From: Candidatus Udaeobacter sp.
Lineage (GTDB): Bacteria; Patescibacteriota; Patescibacteriia; Magasanikbacterales; GWA2-37-8
NCBI GenBank assembly: GCA_035473115.1
Contig: DATION010000006.1
Coordinates: forward strand, 521-64,520
Direction: 5' to 3'
Length of the DNA: 64,000 nt
Each line of letters opens with the position of its first letter. The first letter of the stretch is position 1. Of the stretch, positions 3,021 through 26,489 are shown piece by piece. A program made the position numbers and the translations under genes. Below the pieces are notes generated by a model. That model was given only the letters and a program-made list of their open reading frames with translations. It did no database searches and was not told where the DNA came from.

Positions 3021-5486
3021 TTACATGAGTGTTACGCTGGCCACTTTGTCTCCTTCTTCTTTAAAGCGCATTAGGCGTACTCCTTGAGTGGCTCGGCCAG
3101 AGGAATTTATAGAACCAAATGGCAGGCGGATAACCTGGCCTTTAGCAGACATAATCAGCAGATCTTTTTCTTTGGCTTCAACTGCATCAACTACTTTGGC
3201 AAAAGTTAAGTTGCCGGTTTTAGCGGTAATCTCGGCGGTCTTAATGCCGCTGCCGCCGCGTCCTTGGACTTTATATTCATCCAGTTCGGTGCGTTTGCCG
3301 ACGCCGTTTTCGCCGACTGTTAAAAATGCTAAGCTTTTATTTTTTGGATCCACTATATCCATGCCAATAACTTCGTCGCCGCTCTTTAGGCGCATGCCAC
3401 GGACGCCGCTGGCTGTGCGTCCCATTTCGCGGACGTCTTTTTCTTTGAAGCGAATAGCTTGGCCTTGTTTAGTGGCAATCATAATTTCGTCTGTGCCGGC
3501 GCTAGGCTTTACCCATTCCAAATTATCGTCTGGTTTTAATTTTATGGCGATAAGTCCGCTACGGCGTACATTGGCAAAATCTTCCAAAGCAGTTTTTTTG
3601 ATATTGCCTTTGGTGGTAGTCATTACCAGGTGCTTAATACTAGAAAGATCATTCATTCCCAGTAGCGCAGTAACTTTTTCATTGGGAGCCAGCTGCAAGA
3701 AGTTTACCAAAGCTTGGCCTTTGGCAGTGCGTGAGCCTTGCGGGATATCGTAAGCCATAAGCTGGAAGACACGGCCACGATTGGTAAAGAAGAGGATATT
3801 GTCGTGAGTGTTGGTGGCAACCAAATTTTGCACGCTTTCTTCTTCTTTGGTAGTAACGCCAATTACGCCTTTGCCGCCGCGGGATTGCTGGTGGAAAGTG
3901 TCTGGTGGCAGGCGTTTAATATAGCCATCGGAAGTAACCATAATGATGGTTGCTTCGTTAGGGATAAGATCTTCGGTGGTAAATTCTTTAATGCCGCCAG
4001 CTATAATTTGGGTGCGTCTATCCTGGCCATATTTAGCTTTTATGGCTACGGTTTCGTCGGCGATGATTTTCATTATTTTACTTTTGGAGGCCAAAATAGA
4101 TTCCAGTTCTTTAATTAAAGCTTTTTTCTCTTTTAATTCGTCTTCTATTTTTTGACGTTCCAAGTTGGCCAACTGCTGCAGCTTCATTTCCAAAATAGCT
4201 ACGGCTTGTCTGTCGGTAAATTTAAATTTAGACATCAAGTTAGCTTTGGCTTCATCTTTGTCTTTGGAAGCGCGGATAGTTTTGATGATTAAATCAATTT
4301 TATCAAGCGCCATACTTAAGCCTTCCAAAATATGGGCGCGTTCTTTGGCTTTATTTAAATCAAACTCAGTGCGGCGGCGGATAATTACTTGGCGGTGTTT
4401 AATGAATTCTTCCAAAACGTTTTTTATGGTAAGAACGCGCGGCTGAATGCCATCCACCAAAGCCAGCATGTTAACGTGGAAAGTAGTTTGCAATTCGGTC
4501 ATTTGGAAAAGTTTGTTTAGAACTTTTTTTGGGTAAGCATCTTTTTTGAGGTCAATAACTACGCGTACGCCGTCTTTGTTGGATTCATCGCGTAAATCTT
4601 TGATGCCTTCAATTTTTTTCTCTTGCACCAAGTCAGCAATTTTTTCCAAAAGAGTCGCTTTATTTATGCTGTAAGGAACTTCGGTAATGACAATTTTAAA
4701 TTGATCGGATTTGCCTTCTTGGATTTCGGCTTTTGCGCGCATCACGATTCCGCCTTTACCGGTGGAGTAAGCGGCTAAAATATCTTTTTTATTATAAATA
4801 ATGCCGCCAGTAGGGAAGTCCGGGCCTTTAATTATTTCTGCTAAATCTTCAACACTTGTCTCCGGTTCTTCGATAAGTTTGGTTAAGCCATCGCAAAGTT
4901 CACTAAGATTGTGCGGAGGAATTGAGGTGGCCATACCAACCGCAATACCCACAGTGCCGTTGAGGAGTAAGTTGGGGATTTTGGCCGGCAAAACCGTAGG
5001 CTCTTCATGCGCGCCGTCGTAGTTGGGAACAAAGTTAACTGTATCTTTTTCAATATCAAAAAGCAGCTCCTCGGCCACGGCTGACAGTTTTGCTTCGGTA
5101 TAACGCATAGCCGCCGCATTGTCGCCATCCATCGAACCAAAGTTTCCTTGGCCGTGAACCAAAGGATAGCGCATGGAGAAATCTTGTGCCATACGCACCA
5201 TAGCATCGTATATAGAAGCATCACCGTGCGGATGATATTTGGCCATCACCTCACCGACCACATTGGCGGATTTGCGGAATTTGGCTGTGTGGCGCAGTCC
5301 GATACTCCACATCGCATAAAGCACGCGACGATGTACCGGTTTAAGACCATCCCGGACATCTGGTAAAGCACGAGAGACAATTACGCTCATGGCGTATTCC
5401 AAATATGATTTTTGCATTTCGTCTACCAGTGATGCCGGGGTGATTAACCCGACTTCTTGTTTTGGCATTTCTAGTTTTTCTTGCAT
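3021..5486 (-). CDS. gyrA: DNA gyrase subunit A
   Basis: 821 aa. The active-site region [10 protein letters not shown] and the GyrA N-terminal and beta-pinwheel C-terminal domains are recognisable. Confidence 0.95.
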
Positions 5487-19683: not shown

Positions 19684-21094
19684 TCGGAGGCTGTTTTAAT
19701 TTCCAGCCATGTTCGATAAATAAATCACTTAGCTTGGTGGTGTTGGGAATTTCATTTTGCAGCAAAGCAACTATTGAGTAATTGTCCATTTTACTAGCTG
19801 CATACCAATTATCTTTTTCTTCGGCAGAGAGCTGTATAGGCGCTATATAATTTTTTTTGATCAGCATTTCGTCCCAACTCATATCTTTGTAGAAAACCAA
19901 AGTTTTGGCATTTTTGGCTACCGTTGGATTTAGATAATAGTCAATTTGGTTTTTTAAAGTCATTGAATTGTAGACAAAGACAAATTTATCACTGGTTTCA
20001 TATTGTTTAAATACTGCTTCGTTTTTTTGCCAGTCAGTAATAGGCAGAGTGTCTCGTAAAATATATAAACCAGTCAAGCAAGCGCAGGTGATTAAAGCGG
20101 CTGCCAGCCAATTTTTTACACAGCCAGAAAGAGAGTAAGAGATAGCCATAACCATCAAAGGCAAAATAGCTATGATAAATTTTATATTCCAAACTCGCAA
20201 GCCCAAAGAAAGGATAATTGGGACAAAAATTAAGATCATTAAAAATAAAAGGTTAGCAGATTTAGTTTTATATAGTTTATGTAAGATGAGTAAACCAGCA
20301 AAAAAAACCAGAATTAAGCCGTAAAAAATCGGCAATTGTCCAATCAGTAAATTGAGCAAGGGGCTAACAGCCTGGTTAAATGTGTGGCTAAGATTGAGAA
20401 ACCAGGCTTGACCCAGATTATTGTTTCTTTTTATATATAACGAAGCAAGTATCCAGCTTCCGCCCAAAATAAAAGGAATTAAATTGTATTTTATCCAGTT
20501 GAAAACGGCTGATTTTCCTTTAAAGATAGCTAGAGCCAGAAATTGTCCAGTTAAAAATAATAACGAACTGAGATGAGAAAAAATTAACAAGCCATTTATA
20601 ATAGCGCCCAGTGCTTTGGTTTTAGGCGGAGTATCATTTGAGAAAAATTGCTTATAAATAATAAAAGTAGATAAAATCGCCAGGAGCATTAAGAAAGAAT
20701 AAACTCTGGCCGTGGCTGACCAAAAAATATTGTAGGGATGAATAGCTAAATAAAAAGCCGCCAGGAGAGCGGGTTTTTCAGTAAAAATTTCTTTGCCAAG
20801 TTTATAGATAAAATATATCGAAGCGGTTCCGGCCAAAACGCTTGGTAATCGGGCAAATAATTCATTGGCCGGAAAAATAAAAAACCAAATTTTTAAGATT
20901 AACAGATGTAGCGGTGGGTTGGTTTCCCATAGCCAGTAGATTAACCCTTGAGGCCAAGCTTTTTGGCTATAAATAAAATTGAACATTTCATCATCCCAGA
21001 AATTGCCATATTTAAACACTGCGGCCAAACGTAAAATTAAGCCTAATAAAATTATCAAGCCTAACAGAATATATTTTTTGTTGACAAATTTCAT
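19631..21094 (-). CDS. Polytopic membrane glycosyltransferase, GT39/ArnT-like (dolichyl-phosphate-mannose-protein mannosyltransferase fold)
   Basis: About 11 predicted TM helices with a C-terminal soluble domain. Its N-terminal region resembles the PMT/ArnT family. It overlaps prmC by 53 nt. Confidence 0.5.
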   Translation of the reverse strand: MKFVNKKYILLGLIILLGLILRLAAVFKYGNFWDDEMFNFIYSQKAWPQGLIYWLWETNPPLHLLILKIWFFIFPANELFARLPSVLAGTASIYFIYKLGKEIFTEKPALLAAFYLAIHPYNIFWSATARVYSFLMLLAILSTFIIYKQFFSNDTPPKTKALGAIINGLLIFSHLSSLLFLTGQFLALAIFKGKSAVFNWIKYNLIPFILGGSWILASLYIKRNNNLGQAWFLNLSHTFNQAVSPLLNLLIGQLPIFYGLILVFFAGLLILHKLYKTKSANLLFLMILIFVPIILSLGLRVWNIKFIIAILPLMVMAISYSLSGCVKNWLAAALITCACLTGLYILRDTLPITDWQKNEAVFKQYETSDKFVFVYNSMTLKNQIDYYLNPTVAKNAKTLVFYKDMSWDEMLIKKNYIAPIQLSAEEKDNWYAASKMDNYSIVALLQNEIPNTTKLSDLFIEHGWKLKQPPIAARISGTYKLYIYEKN

Positions 21095-21115
21095 GGAAGA
21101 AATTTACAGGCAAGT

Positions 21116-22201
21116 TTATTCGTCGTCTTCGGTTTCAGCACCGCTGTAATCAAGGCCGGCATAATCGGCTGCTCGAACAGCGGTAATAATGGCGTCTAAA
21201 TCGCCGTCAATAATTCTAGGGATACTGTTCCAACTTTGATGAATACGATGATCAGTGATTCGATCTTGAGGAAAATTATAAGTACGAATTTTTTCACTAC
21301 GATCGCCGCTGCCAATTTGGGCGCGTCTTTTTTCGGTAAGAGTGGCCATCTTTTTTTCTCGGTCAGCCGCGTAGATGCGAGAACGTAAAACAGCCATGGC
21401 TTTTTCTTTGTTGGCAGTCTGCGACCGTTCATCTTGGCATTGCACCATTATACCGGTCGGGATATGGATAATTCTGACGGCTGAATAAGTGGTGTTGACA
21501 CTTTGTCCGCCCGCGCCGCCCGAACAAAAAGTATCAATGCGCAGATCTTTTGGTTCGATTTTAATTTCTGTTTCTTCAATTTCCGGCAGAACAGCCACAG
21601 TGATAGTAGAGGTATGAATCCGTCCAGCTTTTTCGGTGTCAGGCACTCTTTGTACACGATGTACGCCCATCTCGTATTTTAAATCCTTGTAAACATTTTT
21701 GCCTTTGATAGAAAAAATAACTTCTTTAAAACCGCCGATGCCAATGCGGTTGGCATCCAAAATACTGGTTTTCCATTTTTTGCTTTCGGCGTAGCGAGTA
21801 TACATGCGGTAGAGTTCAGCGGCAAATAGGGCCGATTCATCGCCGCCCACGCCAGCGCGGATTTCTACGATCACATCTTTTTTATCAAATGGGTCCTGTG
21901 GACGAGTCATTTCGTCCAGTTCTTTTTCCAGGTTTATTTTTTTTGTTTCCAAATCTGGCAGTTCTGCAACAGCCATTTCTTTTAGCTGAGCATCTTCTTC
22001 TTGATTTATCATTGACTGGGTATCAGTAATATTATTTTCTATCGCAGCTAGTTCTTTAATTTTTTCAACTGTTGATTTTAATTCAGTATATTCTTGAGAA
22101 ATTTCTTTTATTTTTTTGGGATCATTAAGTACAGCCGGATTCTGCAGATCGGTTTCTAGATTGGCAAATTTAATTTGTATTTCTTTGTATTTGTTATTCA
22201 T
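21116..22201 (-). CDS. prfA: Peptide chain release factor 1
   Basis: GGQ motif ([12 protein letters not shown]) and a PxT-type tripeptide region ([14 protein letters not shown]), which points to RF1 rather than RF2. Confidence 0.92.
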
Positions 22202-22245
22202 AAGCCTGGCTGTCTTTCATTAATAGAGTGAGGTTGGAAGTTTTA

Positions 22246-22290
22246 ATAAAAAACAGACTCAACACCAATATATTGTAGTCTGTTTTTTAA
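22246..22290 (-). terminator. Symmetric rho-independent terminator after rpmE
   Basis: aacagact … agtctgtt stem with A-run and T-run flanks. It lies 12 nt downstream of the rpmE stop on the minus strand. Confidence 0.6.
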
Positions 22291-22301
22291 ATTTATCAAA
22301 G

Positions 22302-22598
22302 CTAAGCCTTCTTGGCAGCAGCTTTTTTGGCGGTCTTTTTGGCAGCTACAGCCGCTTTCTTGGCTTTTTGGCCTTTGCGGGCTGCGGCAGCGGAAGTTTT
22401 TTTGTCGGAACGTTCTTGGAATTTTTCTACGCGGCGAGCAGTATCAACAAATTTTTGTTTGCCGGTATAAAAAGGATGGCACTTATTGCAAAGTTCCACG
22501 CGGATAGTTTTCATGGTGCTGCCAGTGGTAAAAGTGTTGCCGCAGGCGCAGGTAACTTCCGTGTCATTATGATATTCAGGGTGAATTTTTTTCTGCAT
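22302..22598 (-). CDS. rpmE: Ribosomal protein L31 with a long Lys/Ala-rich C-terminal extension
   Basis: [10 protein letters not shown]…CxC…[11 protein letters not shown]31 zinc-binding core, then a roughly 35-aa AAKKA-type tail. Promoter TTGACA-N17-TATAGT on the minus strand at about 22610-22638. Confidence 0.85.
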
Positions 22599-22786
22599 AA
22601 AATTAAAGAATTTTTATTTAAGTAAGAGAACTATAGCATTATTATTGCCGACTGTCAATATCAAGGATCTATTTTAAGGCATTTTAAAACCCGCTTTTGG
22701 CGGGTTGGTGGGTTCACGTTGGCCATTCTTTAGCCATTACTGAGCTTACTTGCCTCTTAAAAGAGCCTGGTTAACCGTTTCGCACC

Positions 22787-23053
22787 TTATCCGATTAGGT
22801 GGAGCGGTCGGGTAGTGGTCAGGCCGCCTTCATAAGCCAGCCTGTTCATAGCTTGGTGGAAGGCTCTGGCCCACGCTTTGCTTTCGATGGATTGTCCCGG
22901 TGCAGCCCGGTCGGCTGCTATTTCTGCAACCTCGATAAGCGCGTTTCGAGCTTTTATATATTCACAATTGTGAGGCGGTCTTTGCCTAATTATTTCTGGA
23001 ATATCAAATCCAGAGTCATACTTTCCTTCGACGCACGCACATTTTGTGGTCAT
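22787..23053 (-). CDS. Hypothetical 88-aa Cys-containing protein (island gene 1)
   Basis: ATG at 23053 is preceded by AGGAGA 7 nt upstream. The 149-aa annotated ORF is a 5' extension that runs through the promoter region. No family recognised. G+C is about 50%. Confidence 0.45.
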   Translation of the reverse strand: MTTKCACVEGKYDSGFDIPEIIRQRPPHNCEYIKARNALIEVAEIAADRAAPGQSIESKAWARAFHQAMNRLAYEGGLTTTRPLHLIG

Positions 23054-23081
23054 TTTTTTCTCCTGGTTAAAAACCAGATAC

Positions 23082-23110
23082 TTTATACATTGAGTGTTAA
23101 CTATTGTCAA
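23082..23110 (-). promoter_or_regulatory. Minus-strand sigma70 promoter TTGACA-N17-TATAAA for island gene 1
   Basis: -35 is the reverse complement of 23105-23110 and -10 is the reverse complement of 23082-23087, 17 nt apart. A perfect palindrome ctggttaaaaaccag sits at 23063-23077 in the leader. Confidence 0.5.
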
Positions 23111-23117
23111 GGAGAAC

Positions 23118-23146
23118 TTGACAAATCTTGGTTTTTGTGGTATATT
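23118..23146 (+). promoter_or_regulatory. Consensus sigma70 promoter TTGACA-N17-(TGg)TATATT for the hyper-acidic gene
   Basis: TTGACA at 23118-23123 and TATATT at 23141-23146 with a TGg extension. The two divergent -35 boxes form a perfect inverted repeat TTGTCAA-ggagaac-TTGACAA (23104-23124). A roughly 135-nt leader ends in an AGGAGG SD at 23276-23281. Confidence 0.6.
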
Positions 23147-23287
23147 GGTTTGTTGCCTTTTGCAGCCAACAACTGTAGAATAAGCAATACTTCCTAAGGT
23201 TCGGGTGATTTTTACCCGGATTAAAGGATGTGACAATCAACAAAAAACAACGCGGCAGTAAAACGCGATCAACCCAGGAGGAATCAA

Positions 23288-23920
23288 ATGGCAACGAATC
23301 AGGCGCTGAACGTACTGGACCTGGACACCGATGTCCCCGCGGATCCCACGGTTGGGATGAGCGACGCAGAAGTTCTGGAGGGATGGGATGCCCTGCTCGC
23401 CGGTCTGCCCAATGGTGGTGCAGTGGAGCAGTCCGAGGCCGCGGCCACGACGACCAACTCGCTCGATCCCGGCCACGAAGCGGCGCCGAACGATCCCCTC
23501 GAGCTCCAGTTCGAGATCGATGACCAGGTCATGCTCATCGGACCCGTCACGGCCGATGAGCAGCCCAGCGACCACAGCGTCGTCATGGCCAACCCGCCCA
23601 CCGTGGACGAGGAGTGGCCGGCCATCGACAAGCTCGATGTCGTGGCTGCCACTAATCCGGCCGACCCGAACGACGCGGACGAGTTCGGCGGAGACACCAA
23701 GGAGATCGAGCTCCCCCAGTTCCCGGACAGCGCGACCGAGCCGTCGGCTGATGGTGATGGTCAGGCCCCCACCGATCTGGATGCCGACCCCAACTACGCC
23801 GAGTTCGAGGTCGAGGGTCTGGTCCTCGACGAGGACGATCGGCCGCTGATGACCAGCGGTACCATCGTCGACGCCGCGACCCCGTCGTCCCACGACGACC
23901 AGCTGCGCTGCACGGACTGA
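23288..23920 (+). CDS. Hyper-acidic, Pro/Asp/Glu-rich 210-aa protein encoded by a high-GC ORF (island gene 2)
   Basis: ATG 6 nt after AGGAGG. Very high third-position G/C in this frame. Roughly a quarter of residues are Asp/Glu and there are only about 4 Lys/Arg. The overlapping long ORFs on other frames are GC-shadow artefacts. Confidence 0.55.
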   Translation: MATNQALNVLDLDTDVPADPTVGMSDAEVLEGWDALLAGLPNGGAVEQSEAAATTTNSLDPGHEAAPNDPLELQFEIDDQVMLIGPVTADEQPSDHSVVMANPPTVDEEWPAIDKLDVVAATNPADPNDADEFGGDTKEIELPQFPDSATEPSADGDGQAPTDLDADPNYAEFEVEGLVLDEDDRPLMTSGTIVDAATPSSHDDQLRCTD

Positions 23921-23963
23921 CGCAAGTCAATCACGCGCGGCAGCCAGCCGTCACAGCAGTACA

Positions 23964-24013
23964 CCTCGCCCTGACCAGGGAACAGCTCTGGTCACGGCGA
24001 GGCTTTTGTTTTT
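23964..24013 (+). terminator. Strong rho-independent terminator after the acidic gene
   Basis: 15-bp stem cctcgccctgaccag / ctggtcacggcgagg with one mismatch and loop ggaacagct, followed by cttttgttttt. Confidence 0.7.
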
Positions 24014-24103
24014 ATATAAAAAAATTGAACCCCGCTATGCCGTAGCATGCGGGGGCAGATGGTTTCAGACTTACCAGTGGTCATGAAAATGTTGTGCTTT
24101 GTC

Positions 24104-24490
24104 TTATTTTAAGACGGAAACTGGTAGATTTTGGGTAGAGAGGTGCGCCAGCCAGTCTTTGATCCCAACTAGGAAGGATTCAACAGCTTTCAGGCTATCT
24201 GTGCTATTATTATCCTCTTTGAGATTAACAAAGTTGACATGGCCCATATCCAGCTCTCTTGCTGGCATGATGCCAATCCTGACTTTTATTTTTAGCGTTC
24301 TCCACTGGGCATCAGTGTTTTCGATCTCTCCTTTGATTTCCCACTGTGGAGTGAGTGGAATGAAAAATGTGAAGTAGCCATTTTTATTGGCTTCGTAGCG
24401 ACGGGAGCACCGGGGAAAGAGCTTGAGCAGAAGCTCTTTGAGTATTCTGCAGTTTTCTACTACGATTTTTCGTTCATGATCATCCAGCAT
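24104..24490 (-). CDS. Hypothetical 128-aa protein (island gene 3), convergent with the acidic gene
   Basis: ATG at 24490 with an AGGAAG SD 7 nt upstream. Minus-strand promoter TTGACT-N16-TAGTAT at about 24570-24600. No family recognised. Confidence 0.5.
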   Translation of the reverse strand: MLDDHERKIVVENCRILKELLLKLFPRCSRRYEANKNGYFTFFIPLTPQWEIKGEIENTDAQWRTLKIKVRIGIMPARELDMGHVNFVNLKEDNNSTDSLKAVESFLVGIKDWLAHLSTQNLPVSVLK

Positions 24491-24627
24491 GGTTTTACTT
24501 CCTAAGTGTGGTTTGGCCAAACCTGTTGTGCGTGTGTGTTGGTATGGCCAATACTAGCAGTTTTAAGGGAAAAGTCAATGTATTATCTGGTTTAGTAGTA
24601 AAGGTAAGATAAATTAGCATCTAACTC

Positions 24628-24656
24628 TTGACTATTTTCTATTACCCTTGTATACT
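24628..24656 (+). promoter_or_regulatory. rpsB promoter TTGACT-N17-TATACT
   Basis: Hexamers at 24628-24633 and 24651-24656. An AGGAGG SD precedes the rpsB ATG. Confidence 0.5.
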
Positions 24657-24747
24657 TGTTTTATCTTAATTTAATCTCTCGCTAGCCAACTTTTTCCTCC
24701 CTACGGACCATTCCGGGGCAAGGCTAGGAGGCAATAATAAGGAAAAT

Positions 24748-25530
24748 ATGAGTAAAATGCCAACACTGTTGGAAATGTTAAAGGCCGGAGTTCACTTTGG
24801 CCATCAGAAATCACGCTGGCACCCCAAGATGGAACAGTACATCTTCGGTGTCCGTAACGGAGTCCACATTATCGATTTGGAAAAAACTCAGGTTCAGCTT
24901 GAGAAAGCTCTGGATTATGTAAAGAATTTGGCAAGCAAAGGCCAAGTTATTTTGTTTGTGGGAACAAAACGTCAAGCTAGAGAAATTACCAAGGCTGCAG
25001 CTGTTAGCTGTGAAATGCCATATCTGGTAGAACGCTGGATCGGCGGATTACTAACTAATTTTGATGAAGTTAAACGCCGTTTGAAAAAATATCATAATTT
25101 AAAAGAACAATTTGCTACCGGTGAAATTGAAAAATATACCAAGAAAGAACAGGTAACAATGAAGAAGCAATTAGAAAAATTAGATAAATATTTAATCGGT
25201 TTGACAGCTTTGGATAGAATGCCAGATGCTTTATTTATCGCTGATATGCGTACCGAAAAAACCGCTTTAGCTGAAGCAGAAAGAACTGAAATTCCAACTG
25301 TGGCTATCTCTGATACTAATGTTAATCCGGAGAAAGTTAATTATGCTATTCCGGCCAACGACGATGCTGTTAATTCTATAAAATTAGTCACTGATTTGGT
25401 TGCTGAAGCTATTAATGAAGGCCGCAAAGAATTTGAAAAGAAAAAATTAGAACGCGCTAAAGAAGAACCAGTAAAGCGCGACGCTGTAAAAGTAGAAAGA
25501 CGAGCTCTTAAAAAAGATGAATCAGTTTAA
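24748..25530 (+). CDS. rpsB: Ribosomal protein S2
   Basis: MLKAGVHFGHQKSRWHPKM… canonical S2 N-terminus. Confidence 0.95.
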   Translation: MSKMPTLLEMLKAGVHFGHQKSRWHPKMEQYIFGVRNGVHIIDLEKTQVQLEKALDYVKNLASKGQVILFVGTKRQAREITKAAAVSCEMPYLVERWIGGLLTNFDEVKRRLKKYHNLKEQFATGEIEKYTKKEQVTMKKQLEKLDKYLIGLTALDRMPDALFIADMRTEKTALAEAERTEIPTVAISDTNVNPEKVNYAIPANDDAVNSIKLVTDLVAEAINEGRKEFEKKKLERAKEEPVKRDAVKVERRALKKDESV

Positions 25531-25616
25531 GGTTTAGATTGCTTAAACTATTAATCAAATTCGGCCTTGCATGGCACATAGTGTCACTTGGCCTGATTTC
25601 TCTAAAATAAAATCAT

Positions 25617-26489
25617 ATGTCTATAAGCACATCAGACGTAGCCAAACTAAGATCAATGACTGGCGCCGGTATGATGGATTGCAAAAAAGCTTTGGATGAA
25701 GCCGAAGGCGATCTGGAAAAAGCCGGAGAAATACTTCGTAAAAAAGGTATTGTTAAAGCTGCTAAACGTTCGGATAAGGTGGCAGCCGAAGGTACTACCA
25801 GAGTAAAAACAGATGGCAATGACGCCGTAATTTTGGAAGTTAATTCCGAAACTGATTTTGTGGCCGAGAATGCTGACTTCAAAAATCTGGTAACTGAAAT
25901 TGTGGATGCTTGTTTGGAAAAAGAACCAAAAGATATGCCAGCTGCTTTGGCCGAAAATGTCGGTGGGCAAACTTTACAAGAACGCTTAAATAATTTAACT
26001 CTTACCATCGGTGAAAAAATTTCTTTCCGCCGTTTTGTCTTAGTCAAAAAAGAATCAGGCGACGCTTTTGGTGCTTATTCTCATTTGGGCGGCAAAATTT
26101 CTGTCTTAATTTTGCTCAAAAATTCTGCTAACAAAGATTTAGCTCGCGATATTGCGATGCATGCAGCTGCCTCAAATCCAAAATATGTCAGCCGCGACCA
26201 GGTGCCAGCTGAAGTTGTAGAAAAAGAAAAAGAAATTTATACCGAGCAGCTTAAACAACAAGGCAAACCAGAAGCAGCCATAGCCAATATCTTAAAAGGA
26301 AAATTAGATAAATTCTATAGTGAAATTTGTCTGTTGGAACAGCCTTTCATTAAAGATGAAGAAAAAACCATTCAAAAATTATTGGGAGAAAATGTCAGCA
26401 TTGCCAGAATGGAAAGATTTGAATTGGGTGCGGGCTTAACAAAAGAAGCGACGGATTTTGCCGCTGAAGTAGAAGCACAGTTGAAATAA
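25617..26489 (+). CDS. tsf: Elongation factor Ts
   Basis: UBA-like N-terminus (VAKLRSMTGAGMMDCKKAL) and EF-Ts dimerisation domains. rpsB-tsf gene order. Confidence 0.95.
   Translation: MSISTSDVAKLRSMTGAGMMDCKKALDEAEGDLEKAGEILRKKGIVKAAKRSDKVAAEGTTRVKTDGNDAVILEVNSETDFVAENADFKNLVTEIVDACLEKEPKDMPAALAENVGGQTLQERLNNLTLTIGEKISFRRFVLVKKESGDAFGAYSHLGGKISVLILLKNSANKDLARDIAMHAAASNPKYVSRDQVPAEVVEKEKEIYTEQLKQQGKPEAAIANILKGKLDKFYSEICLLEQPFIKDEEKTIQKLLGENVSIARMERFELGAGLTKEATDFAAEVEAQLK

Follow-up and report, generated by a model that had tools for sequence, protein, structure and literature searches.

In phage lambda (PR/PRM) and at ilvY/ilvC of E. coli, two promoters on opposite strands have adjacent upstream regions, and the lambda start sites lie 82 bp apart. 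Lambda carries three separate operators, which are bound by CI and Cro, and at ilvY/ilvC a LysR-type regulator is present. In the analysis of such pairs, RNA polymerase has been treated as covering positions -40 to +10, and promoters are regarded as overlapping if the opposite start falls between -80 and +20 (Bendtsen et al., PMC3167631). About 14% of E. coli promoters overlap a promoter of opposite orientation; in lambda, polymerase bound at PR inhibits PRM, and interference varies with the polymerase dwell time at each promoter (PMC3167631). Moreover, back-to-back promoters can stimulate each other via transcription-generated negative supercoiling, for example at ilvY/ilvC (PMC4469952). In the bidirectional promoters of Warman et al. 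2021, as cited in PMC13644379, the -10 elements overlap, the starts are ~18 bp apart, and a single polymerase fits; symmetry of a core promoter element gives two directions, and the symmetry requires no transcription factor as its explanation. Finally, the TetR/tetA, LysR-type, and phage cI/cro operators place an inverted repeat over the -35 boxes with a small gene beside it. These systems encode a recognisable DNA-binding regulator, and their operators, often present in several copies, hold sequence information that the promoter consensus does not account for.

The window, i.e., the whole 64-kb stretch of DNA analysed here, contains a comparable layout in a three-gene insert ("island") between rpmE/prfA and rpsB/tsf. 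A 234-bp intergenic region (...ctaTTGTCAAGgagaaCTTGACAAatcttggtttttgTGgTATATTgg...) separates an 88-aa gene on the minus strand from an acidic gene on the plus strand. As in lambda and at ilvY/ilvC, two predicted opposite-strand promoters have adjacent upstream regions, and as in the TetR/tetA, LysR-type, and cI/cro operators, an inverted repeat covers the -35 boxes and a small gene lies beside it. Unlike in lambda and at ilvY/ilvC, no regulator and no operator separate from the -35 boxes was identified in the window; nor were the recognisable DNA-binding regulator, the information beyond the promoter consensus, or the multiple copies of the TetR/tetA, LysR-type, and cI/cro operators found there. 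The pair resembles the bidirectional promoters of Warman et al. in the symmetry of a core promoter element. However, here the symmetric element is the -35 pair, each promoter has its own -10 hexamer, and the predicted starts are ~77-80 bp apart. With -10 hexamers 53 bp apart (23082-23087 and 23141-23146) and not overlapping, the pair was rejected as a member of that type. The features of the region are as follows.

22787-23053, minus strand: 88-aa gene, from its open reading frame and start (NCBI record VLK22_03555)
23060-23064, minus strand: Shine-Dalgarno site AGGAG, 6 nt upstream of the ATG at 23053, read from the sequence
23063-23077, no strand: 6-bp inverted repeat ctggtt-aaa-aaccag, judged to be chance
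23082-23087, minus strand: -10 hexamer TATAAA of the minus promoter, 5/6, with A instead of the conserved T at the final position
23104-23124, no strand: inverted repeat TTGTCAAG-GAGAA-CTTGACAA, two extended -35 elements on opposite strands
23105-23110, minus strand: -35 hexamer TTGACA of the minus promoter (reverse complement), 17-nt spacer
23118-23123, plus strand: -35 hexamer TTGACA of the plus promoter, from the promoter scan
23138-23146, plus strand: extended -10 TGgTATATT of the plus promoter, 17-nt spacer (TG at 23138-23139, TATATT at 23141-23146)
23153-23287, plus strand: predicted leader of the acidic gene, ~135 nt, from its predicted start site
23276-23281, plus strand: Shine-Dalgarno site AGGAGG, 6 nt upstream of the ATG at 23288, read from the sequence
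23288-23920, plus strand: acidic orphan gene, 210 aa, pI 4.05, net charge ~-46, GC 66%, GC3 82%
23964-24002, plus strand: terminator-like hairpin downstream of the acidic gene; its 15-nt arms contain one mismatch and precede CTTTTGTTTTT

To count as a sigma-70-type promoter, a site had to combine a TTGACA-like -35 hexamer with a TATAAT-like -10 hexamer 16-18 nt away, the latter carrying A in its second and T in its sixth position. The plus promoter, P(+), fits this pattern in its -35, its spacer, and both -10 positions. Reading TTGACA-17-TATATT with TG, it scores 11/12 and is the best site of the 5-kb promoter scan (21000-26000). The minus promoter, P(-), reads TTGACA-17-TATAAA and also reaches 11/12, but was not listed by the scan because A replaces the conserved T at the last -10 position. 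On sequence grounds, P(+) is expected to be the stronger of the two, and P(-), whose -10 hexamer ends in A where T is highly conserved, may be weak or not used at all. Downstream of both lies a co-directional gene with a ribosome-binding site. The sequence-only reading had proposed a divergent promoter pair at this place, and our in silico analysis supports it, with each promoter well placed for a gene that has a Shine-Dalgarno site. Between the two -35 hexamers lie 7 bp, and their centres are separated by 13 bp. Taking 6-9 nt past each -10, the predicted starts fall at ~23152-23155 (plus) and ~23075 (minus) and are thereby separated by ~77-80 bp.

The promoter pair exceeds chance. Sites of at least 11/12 number 10 on both strands of the 64-kb window, compared to 2.1 ± 1.45 in 200 dinucleotide shuffles, and both studied promoters belong to these only ten sites in 128 kb (both strands counted). 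A divergent pair within 40 nt arose in 0/200 dinucleotide-preserving shuffles. Exact TTGACA occurs 28 times in the window, and for 7 of these 28 a -10 hexamer of at least 5/6 follows at 16-18 nt, two of the seven being the studied pair. Further, the rpmE promoter (22658) reads TTGACA-17-TATAGT with TG and lies 32 nt before the start codon, and three more top-scoring sites lie directly upstream of co-directional genes. The host thus appears to use such promoters, the specificity of its RNA polymerase being read solely from the promoter-like sites of the window.

These numbers bear on the reading that the elements have come together by chance in AT-rich intergenic DNA and do not act as promoters, or else that they form the hairpin of a terminator or recombination site. 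Indeed, a scan flags 23104-23124 as terminator-like on the plus strand. Yet no plus-strand gene upstream would need termination, only 3 of the 8 stem pairs are G-C, and the T tract is poor (tail ATCTTGGTTT). Transcription from either predicted start site would lead away from the repeat, which would therefore not be transcribed. No recombinase or transposase is encoded nearby. Together with the shuffling result, this makes the reading highly improbable, and terminator, recombination site, and transposon end were all rejected given that neither a co-directional upstream gene nor a nearby recombinase exists.

The inverted repeat itself was described by the sequence-only reading with correct coordinates and letters (TTGTCAA, 23104-23110; TTGACAA, 23118-23124). 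One more pair on the inner side lengthens the arms to 8 bp and leaves a spacer of 5 nt; on the outer side, A/A at 23103/23125 does not pair. Each arm holds a perfect TTGACA, placed 17 nt from TATATT (plus, with TG) or TATAAA (minus), and TTGACA on each strand already fixes 6 of the 8 positions per arm. Hence, the symmetry beyond the two -35 hexamers amounts to 2 bp, T/A at 23104/23124 and G/C at 23111/23117, an agreement that has p ~0.1 when judged by the bases flanking the window's 28 TTGACA sites. Both additional symmetric bases make each -35 element read cTTGACAa, in agreement with the classical extended -35 consensus tcTTGACat. Moreover, TTG-A-CAA is nearly self-complementary by itself. 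The two extended -35 elements suffice to explain the symmetry that had been taken as the mark of an operator. In the 64-kb window, no further copy of the repeat was found with up to 3 mismatches, and a host regulon motif was rejected on this basis. Taken together, the locus probably comprises two independent, near-consensus sigma-70-type promoters standing back to back, and the palindrome would be incidental.

The same core is present in phage contigs. IMG/VR was scanned for TTGTCAAG-N5-CTTGACAA, which gave 88 non-redundant matches among those listed; the face-to-face arrangement of the arms was scanned as a control, although the match counts of the two scans are not comparable. Among the matches listed, -10-like hexamers (at least 5/6) stand 16-18 nt out on both sides in 12/88, compared to 0-1/88 at the control spacings of 4-6, 10-12, 22-24, 28-30, and 34-36 nt. 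Counted by side, again among the matches listed, a -10-like hexamer occurs at 16-18 nt in 34/176 and at the control spacings in 1-8/176. The uncultured phage contigs L062, L084, L106, L119, L137, and L162 share with the window the exact core and TATAAT-like hexamers 16-17 nt out on both strands, but differ from it in their flanking genes, which are unrelated to those of the window, and in the N5 centre, which varies by family. The 12 both-sided matches represent ~4 sequence families, each with a different N5 centre, and the neighbours of the core are unrelated (terminase small subunit, UvsY-like, glucosyltransferase-like, late sigma factor). As the core recurs beside unrelated genes and with a variable centre, a shared binding protein is not needed. 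Judged by sequence, the same palindromic architecture recurs wherever two putatively strong promoters stand back to back. In named cultured phages, blastn found no double-promoter core.

Members with a terminase-small-subunit-like gene and the core (L054, L062, L084, L118, L119, and L162) additionally carry a C6/G6 run on one side. It is located ~15-20 nt downstream of the -10 and is kept across diverged phage members.

A separate object accounts for 27/88 (~30%) of the listed IMG/VR matches, namely a 25-27 bp palindrome (C)AGTTGTCAAGGATTCCTTGACAACT(G). Its centre is GATTC or, in a variant, GATTG, and its extended arms read AG...CT. Across unrelated phage ORFs of 161-2116 aa with a GC content of 40-63% (for example L052 at 1416, L061 at 7180, L094 at 3061, L095 at 6570, L080 at 626, and L049 at 5116), the DNA sequence of the palindrome does not vary, and it reads VVK[D/E/Q]SLTT in either orientation (VVKDSLTT element). 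In two loci it stands at the first residue of a RhuM Pfam domain, elsewhere just before TSCPD or DUF3310 domains, and also within a polyvalent protein whose LPD39 domain comes later in the sequence. Degenerate copies are sometimes found 27-33 nt away. Two plasmid matches lie in genes annotated as RhuM family, and the literature yielded no mention of the palindrome. The repeat of the window was rejected as a copy of it, since the flanks (TA...AT in the window), the centre (GAGAA), and the intergenic position disagree.

The phage spacings also enter the question of whether P(-) is a promoter at all. Only the plus promoter might be functional, the minus match being a by-product of the near self-complementarity of TTGACAA and a chance AT-rich hexamer; the 88-aa gene would then be silent or transcribed from elsewhere, e.g., from the weak TTGTCA-17-AAAAAT at 23236-23208. 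This possibility draws on the missing final T of TATAAA and its lack of a TG extension, on the 0.6-4.5% of sides that carry a -10-like hexamer at control spacings by chance, and on the 9/12 score of the alternative upstream site. However, sites of at least 9/12 are at chance level (14 found, 8.7 expected), the minus -35 is perfect with a spacer of exactly 17 nt, and the minus site lies 22-30 nt upstream of a real gene of a conserved family with a good Shine-Dalgarno site. In addition, the combination TTGACA-18-TATAAA recurs ~170 nt upstream of tRNA-Leu in the window, and other stand-alone homologues of the 88-aa gene have their own TTGACA promoters. We consider a functional plus promoter without its partner quite improbable and continue with two back-to-back promoters as the preferred reading.

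The 88-aa gene belongs to an uncharacterised family of phage-associated small proteins. A word-indexed search recovered the protein itself only, and exhaustive searching with phmmer brought up 38 distant relatives, ~70-110 aa long, whose N-termini back the ATG at 23053. The family is defined by the motifs CxC...HxC and Y[VI]xARNALIPxAE...WxRxFHxAMxxLA, i.e., a CxC...HxC part plus a helical hairpin, and in some of its members the Cys/His part is missing. Neither the 88-aa protein nor any of its 38 homologues has a match in Pfam, PHROGs, or NCBIfam, and a search of the family profile against the PDB returned nothing convincing. Its AlphaFold model (pLDDT 84) shows three helices at residues 30-75 and has no match below E = 1.7 in the PDB and BFVD by Foldseek.

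For the genomic context, 40 loci encoding relatives were compared; the genome-contig match L001 was left out as a false positive, being an MgtE gene. In phage contigs, the relatives lie inside co-directional operons beside RecT, exonuclease, methyltransferase, RusA, RNA ligase, portal, or Mu-F genes, and in cellular contigs they are stand-alone inserts, for instance between secY and adk (L018) or between carboxypeptidase and clpB (L005). Several are located beside tRNA genes or truncated by them (L007-L011, L021-L024, L037, L043). Overall, the family (L002-L043) is found in phage early/recombination modules and in inserts of bacterial chromosomes that often adjoin tRNA genes, with truncations at tRNA-Phe (L021-L024, L028, L030) or tRNA-Val (L037). 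The truncated copies suggest an integration junction. The upstream regions of six homologues have no repeat in common except the -35 box, and cTTGACAa occurs in 4/6 promoters of stand-alone homologues from other genomes, which points to a preference for the extended -35. No acidic divergent neighbour was found at the loci of relatives. One stand-alone family gene, the secY/adk insert in a 42%-GC genome (L018), has a 36-bp perfect palindrome, TTGTCTCACTATTTACGA|TCGTAAATAGTGAGACAA, at 4826-4861, ~30 nt upstream of its -35.

The acidic protein contains 32 Asp and 18 Glu against 4 basic residues, together with repeated DPN..EFE-like motifs. The remainder of the window has 39.6% GC compared to the 66% of the acidic gene, and the GC-rich stretch reaches to ~24060. 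The jump in GC starts almost exactly at the ribosome-binding site of the acidic gene, with promoter and leader being AT-rich and host-like. The terminator-like hairpin downstream was found by the inverted repeat scan, and its sequence ends in a T tract. In its leader, the acidic gene has a fold (23153-23310) of -39.5 kcal/mol (z = -2.27), better than shuffles, including an 11-bp hairpin at 23198-23222. UUGCC at the 5' end of the leader can pair with GGCAA directly after the AUG, which hints at translational control of the acidic gene. Rfam (E ≤1) gave nothing relevant for the control region and leader, and a riboswitch or small RNA was ruled out on that basis.

The third gene of the island (24104-24520, minus strand) is an orphan of 138 aa with a pI of 9.2. 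Its single-sequence AlphaFold model is an alpha-beta5-alpha arrangement (pLDDT 71) with no helix-turn-helix and no match in the PDB. Upstream, a promoter-like site TTGACT-16-TAGTAT with TG (24578-24551) stands back to back with the promoter-like TTGACT-17-TATACT of rpsB (24628-24656). At the other end of the island, a hairpin aaaaCCCGC-tttt-GCGGGtt at 22686-22705, between the stop codon of the 88-aa gene and the rpmE promoter, looks like a terminator insulating rpmE from island transcription; it was not flagged by the terminator scan, its T tract being short. For the acidic and 138-aa proteins no homologue was found among 5.8 billion proteins, Pfam, PHROGs, PADLOC, the PDB, cultured phages, plasmids, and IMG/VR, and the island DNA has no similarity to cultured phages. 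The arrangement of the island is identical in the NCBI genome, which is metagenome-assembled and carries the label 'Candidatus Udaeobacter sp.', and in a Logan contig; the two are independent assemblies.

With these proteins at hand, a true operator can be weighed against two incidental -35 elements. A dimeric repressor, be it the 88-aa, the 138-aa, or a host protein, would bind 23104-23124, occlude both -35 boxes, and co-repress the two genes, possibly with autoregulation. The perfect 8-bp repeat is centred between the divergent promoters and covers both -35 boxes, exactly where a repressor would silence both genes. Recognition of GTCAAG/CTTGAC as the core would put the centres of the half-sites ~11 bp apart. 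Likewise in line with an operator, 23104-23124 folds as single-stranded DNA with -7.2 kcal/mol (z = -4.9), two symmetric base pairs lie outside the hexamers, and arms of the same sequence form the other, strictly conserved palindrome in phage ORFs, so that selection at the DNA level is possible. Strong promoters on acquired genes are, moreover, often repressed. Against this, two extended -35 elements explain the symmetry, and the site has no second copy in 64 kb. The acidic protein, with its charge of ~-46, cannot bind DNA, the 138-aa model has neither a helix-turn-helix nor a PDB match, and the 88-aa family shows neither a DNA-binding signature nor a matching fold, its homologues residing mostly in co-directional phage operons or behind unrelated upstream regions. 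For the three island proteins, there was no match in Pfam, PHROG, PADLOC, or NCBIfam, and the models match no DNA-binding fold; therefore, none of them looks like a DNA-binding protein, although a new fold is possible. The analysis thus found no symmetry that goes beyond the promoter consensus, no adjacent DNA-binding regulator, and no conserved or repeated site. We regard an operator as unlikely, each test of it having come out negative or neutral.

The proposal of the sequence-only reading that the 88-aa protein regulates both its own gene and the acidic gene is not supported either, as the family has neither a recognisable DNA-binding fold, nor a conserved acidic partner, nor a shared upstream repeat. 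It is very unlikely that the 88-aa protein uses the -35 palindrome as its operator and founds a new family of small phage-derived transcription regulators. Were it so, these regulators would combine a CxC...HxC zinc motif with a helical hairpin, and the island would be a minimal two-gene switch that silences a hyper-acidic, possibly DNA-mimicking, anti-defence-like protein until needed.

A second repeat does not add to the operator layout. ctggttaaaaaccag at 23063-23077 had been called a perfect palindrome in the minus-strand leader, but it really consists of 6-bp arms (ctggtt/aaccag) around aaa, and it is not confined to the leader, overlapping both the predicted minus start site and the minus Shine-Dalgarno site. 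Per kb, the window contains 6.5 inverted repeats with 6-bp arms and a spacer of 0-10 nt. As RNA, the repeat folds with -7.4 kcal/mol (z = -1.2), and 24/200 shuffles are equally good; the minus RNA starting at the predicted start gives z = 0.1. Hence, we judge the repeat to be of chance frequency and not meaningful. A minus-leader hairpin hiding the Shine-Dalgarno site was also rejected, as the folds of -2.9 to -7.4 kcal/mol (z 0.1 to -1.2) are not significant.

Returning to two independent promoters back to back, P(+), cTTGACAa-17-TGgTATATT, would start at ~23152-23155 and express the acidic gene via the structured leader of ~135 nt, while P(-), cTTGACAa-17-TATAAA, would start at ~23075 and express the 88-aa gene via a leader of ~22 nt. 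The 8-bp inverted repeat would merely be the two extended -35 elements on opposite strands, with no dedicated operator required. With -35 boxes 7 bp and starts ~77-80 bp apart, two polymerases are expected to abut. Exclusion of one side by polymerase occupancy on the other, the alternative offered by the sequence-only reading, is plausible in principle but borderline here, as the pair sits at the boundary of the -80 limit for overlapping promoters (PMC3167631). Any coupling would consist of marginal steric competition and of negative supercoiling behind each transcribing polymerase. Given abutting polymerases and a spacing at the boundary, both promoters would be largely constitutive, with a mutual influence that is modest at most.

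We thus infer that the window holds a real but ordinary tail-to-tail divergent sigma-70 pair, a further instance of a known layout. The control region has a textbook layout and brings no conceptual change. It does carry a caution: Where a perfect palindrome contains TTGACA on both strands, an operator should not be concluded from it, since such a palindrome follows automatically from two consensus -35 boxes, which is also why the 21-bp core recurs in unrelated phages. For the uncultured low-GC bacterium, the promoters probably mark two orphan genes as strongly expressed. One encodes a protein of -46 charge with foreign codon usage, the other a member of an unstudied phage-associated small-protein family, and their probable strong expression makes both reasonable candidates for cloning and testing. 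The genes that would be driven here are more curious than the promoters themselves.
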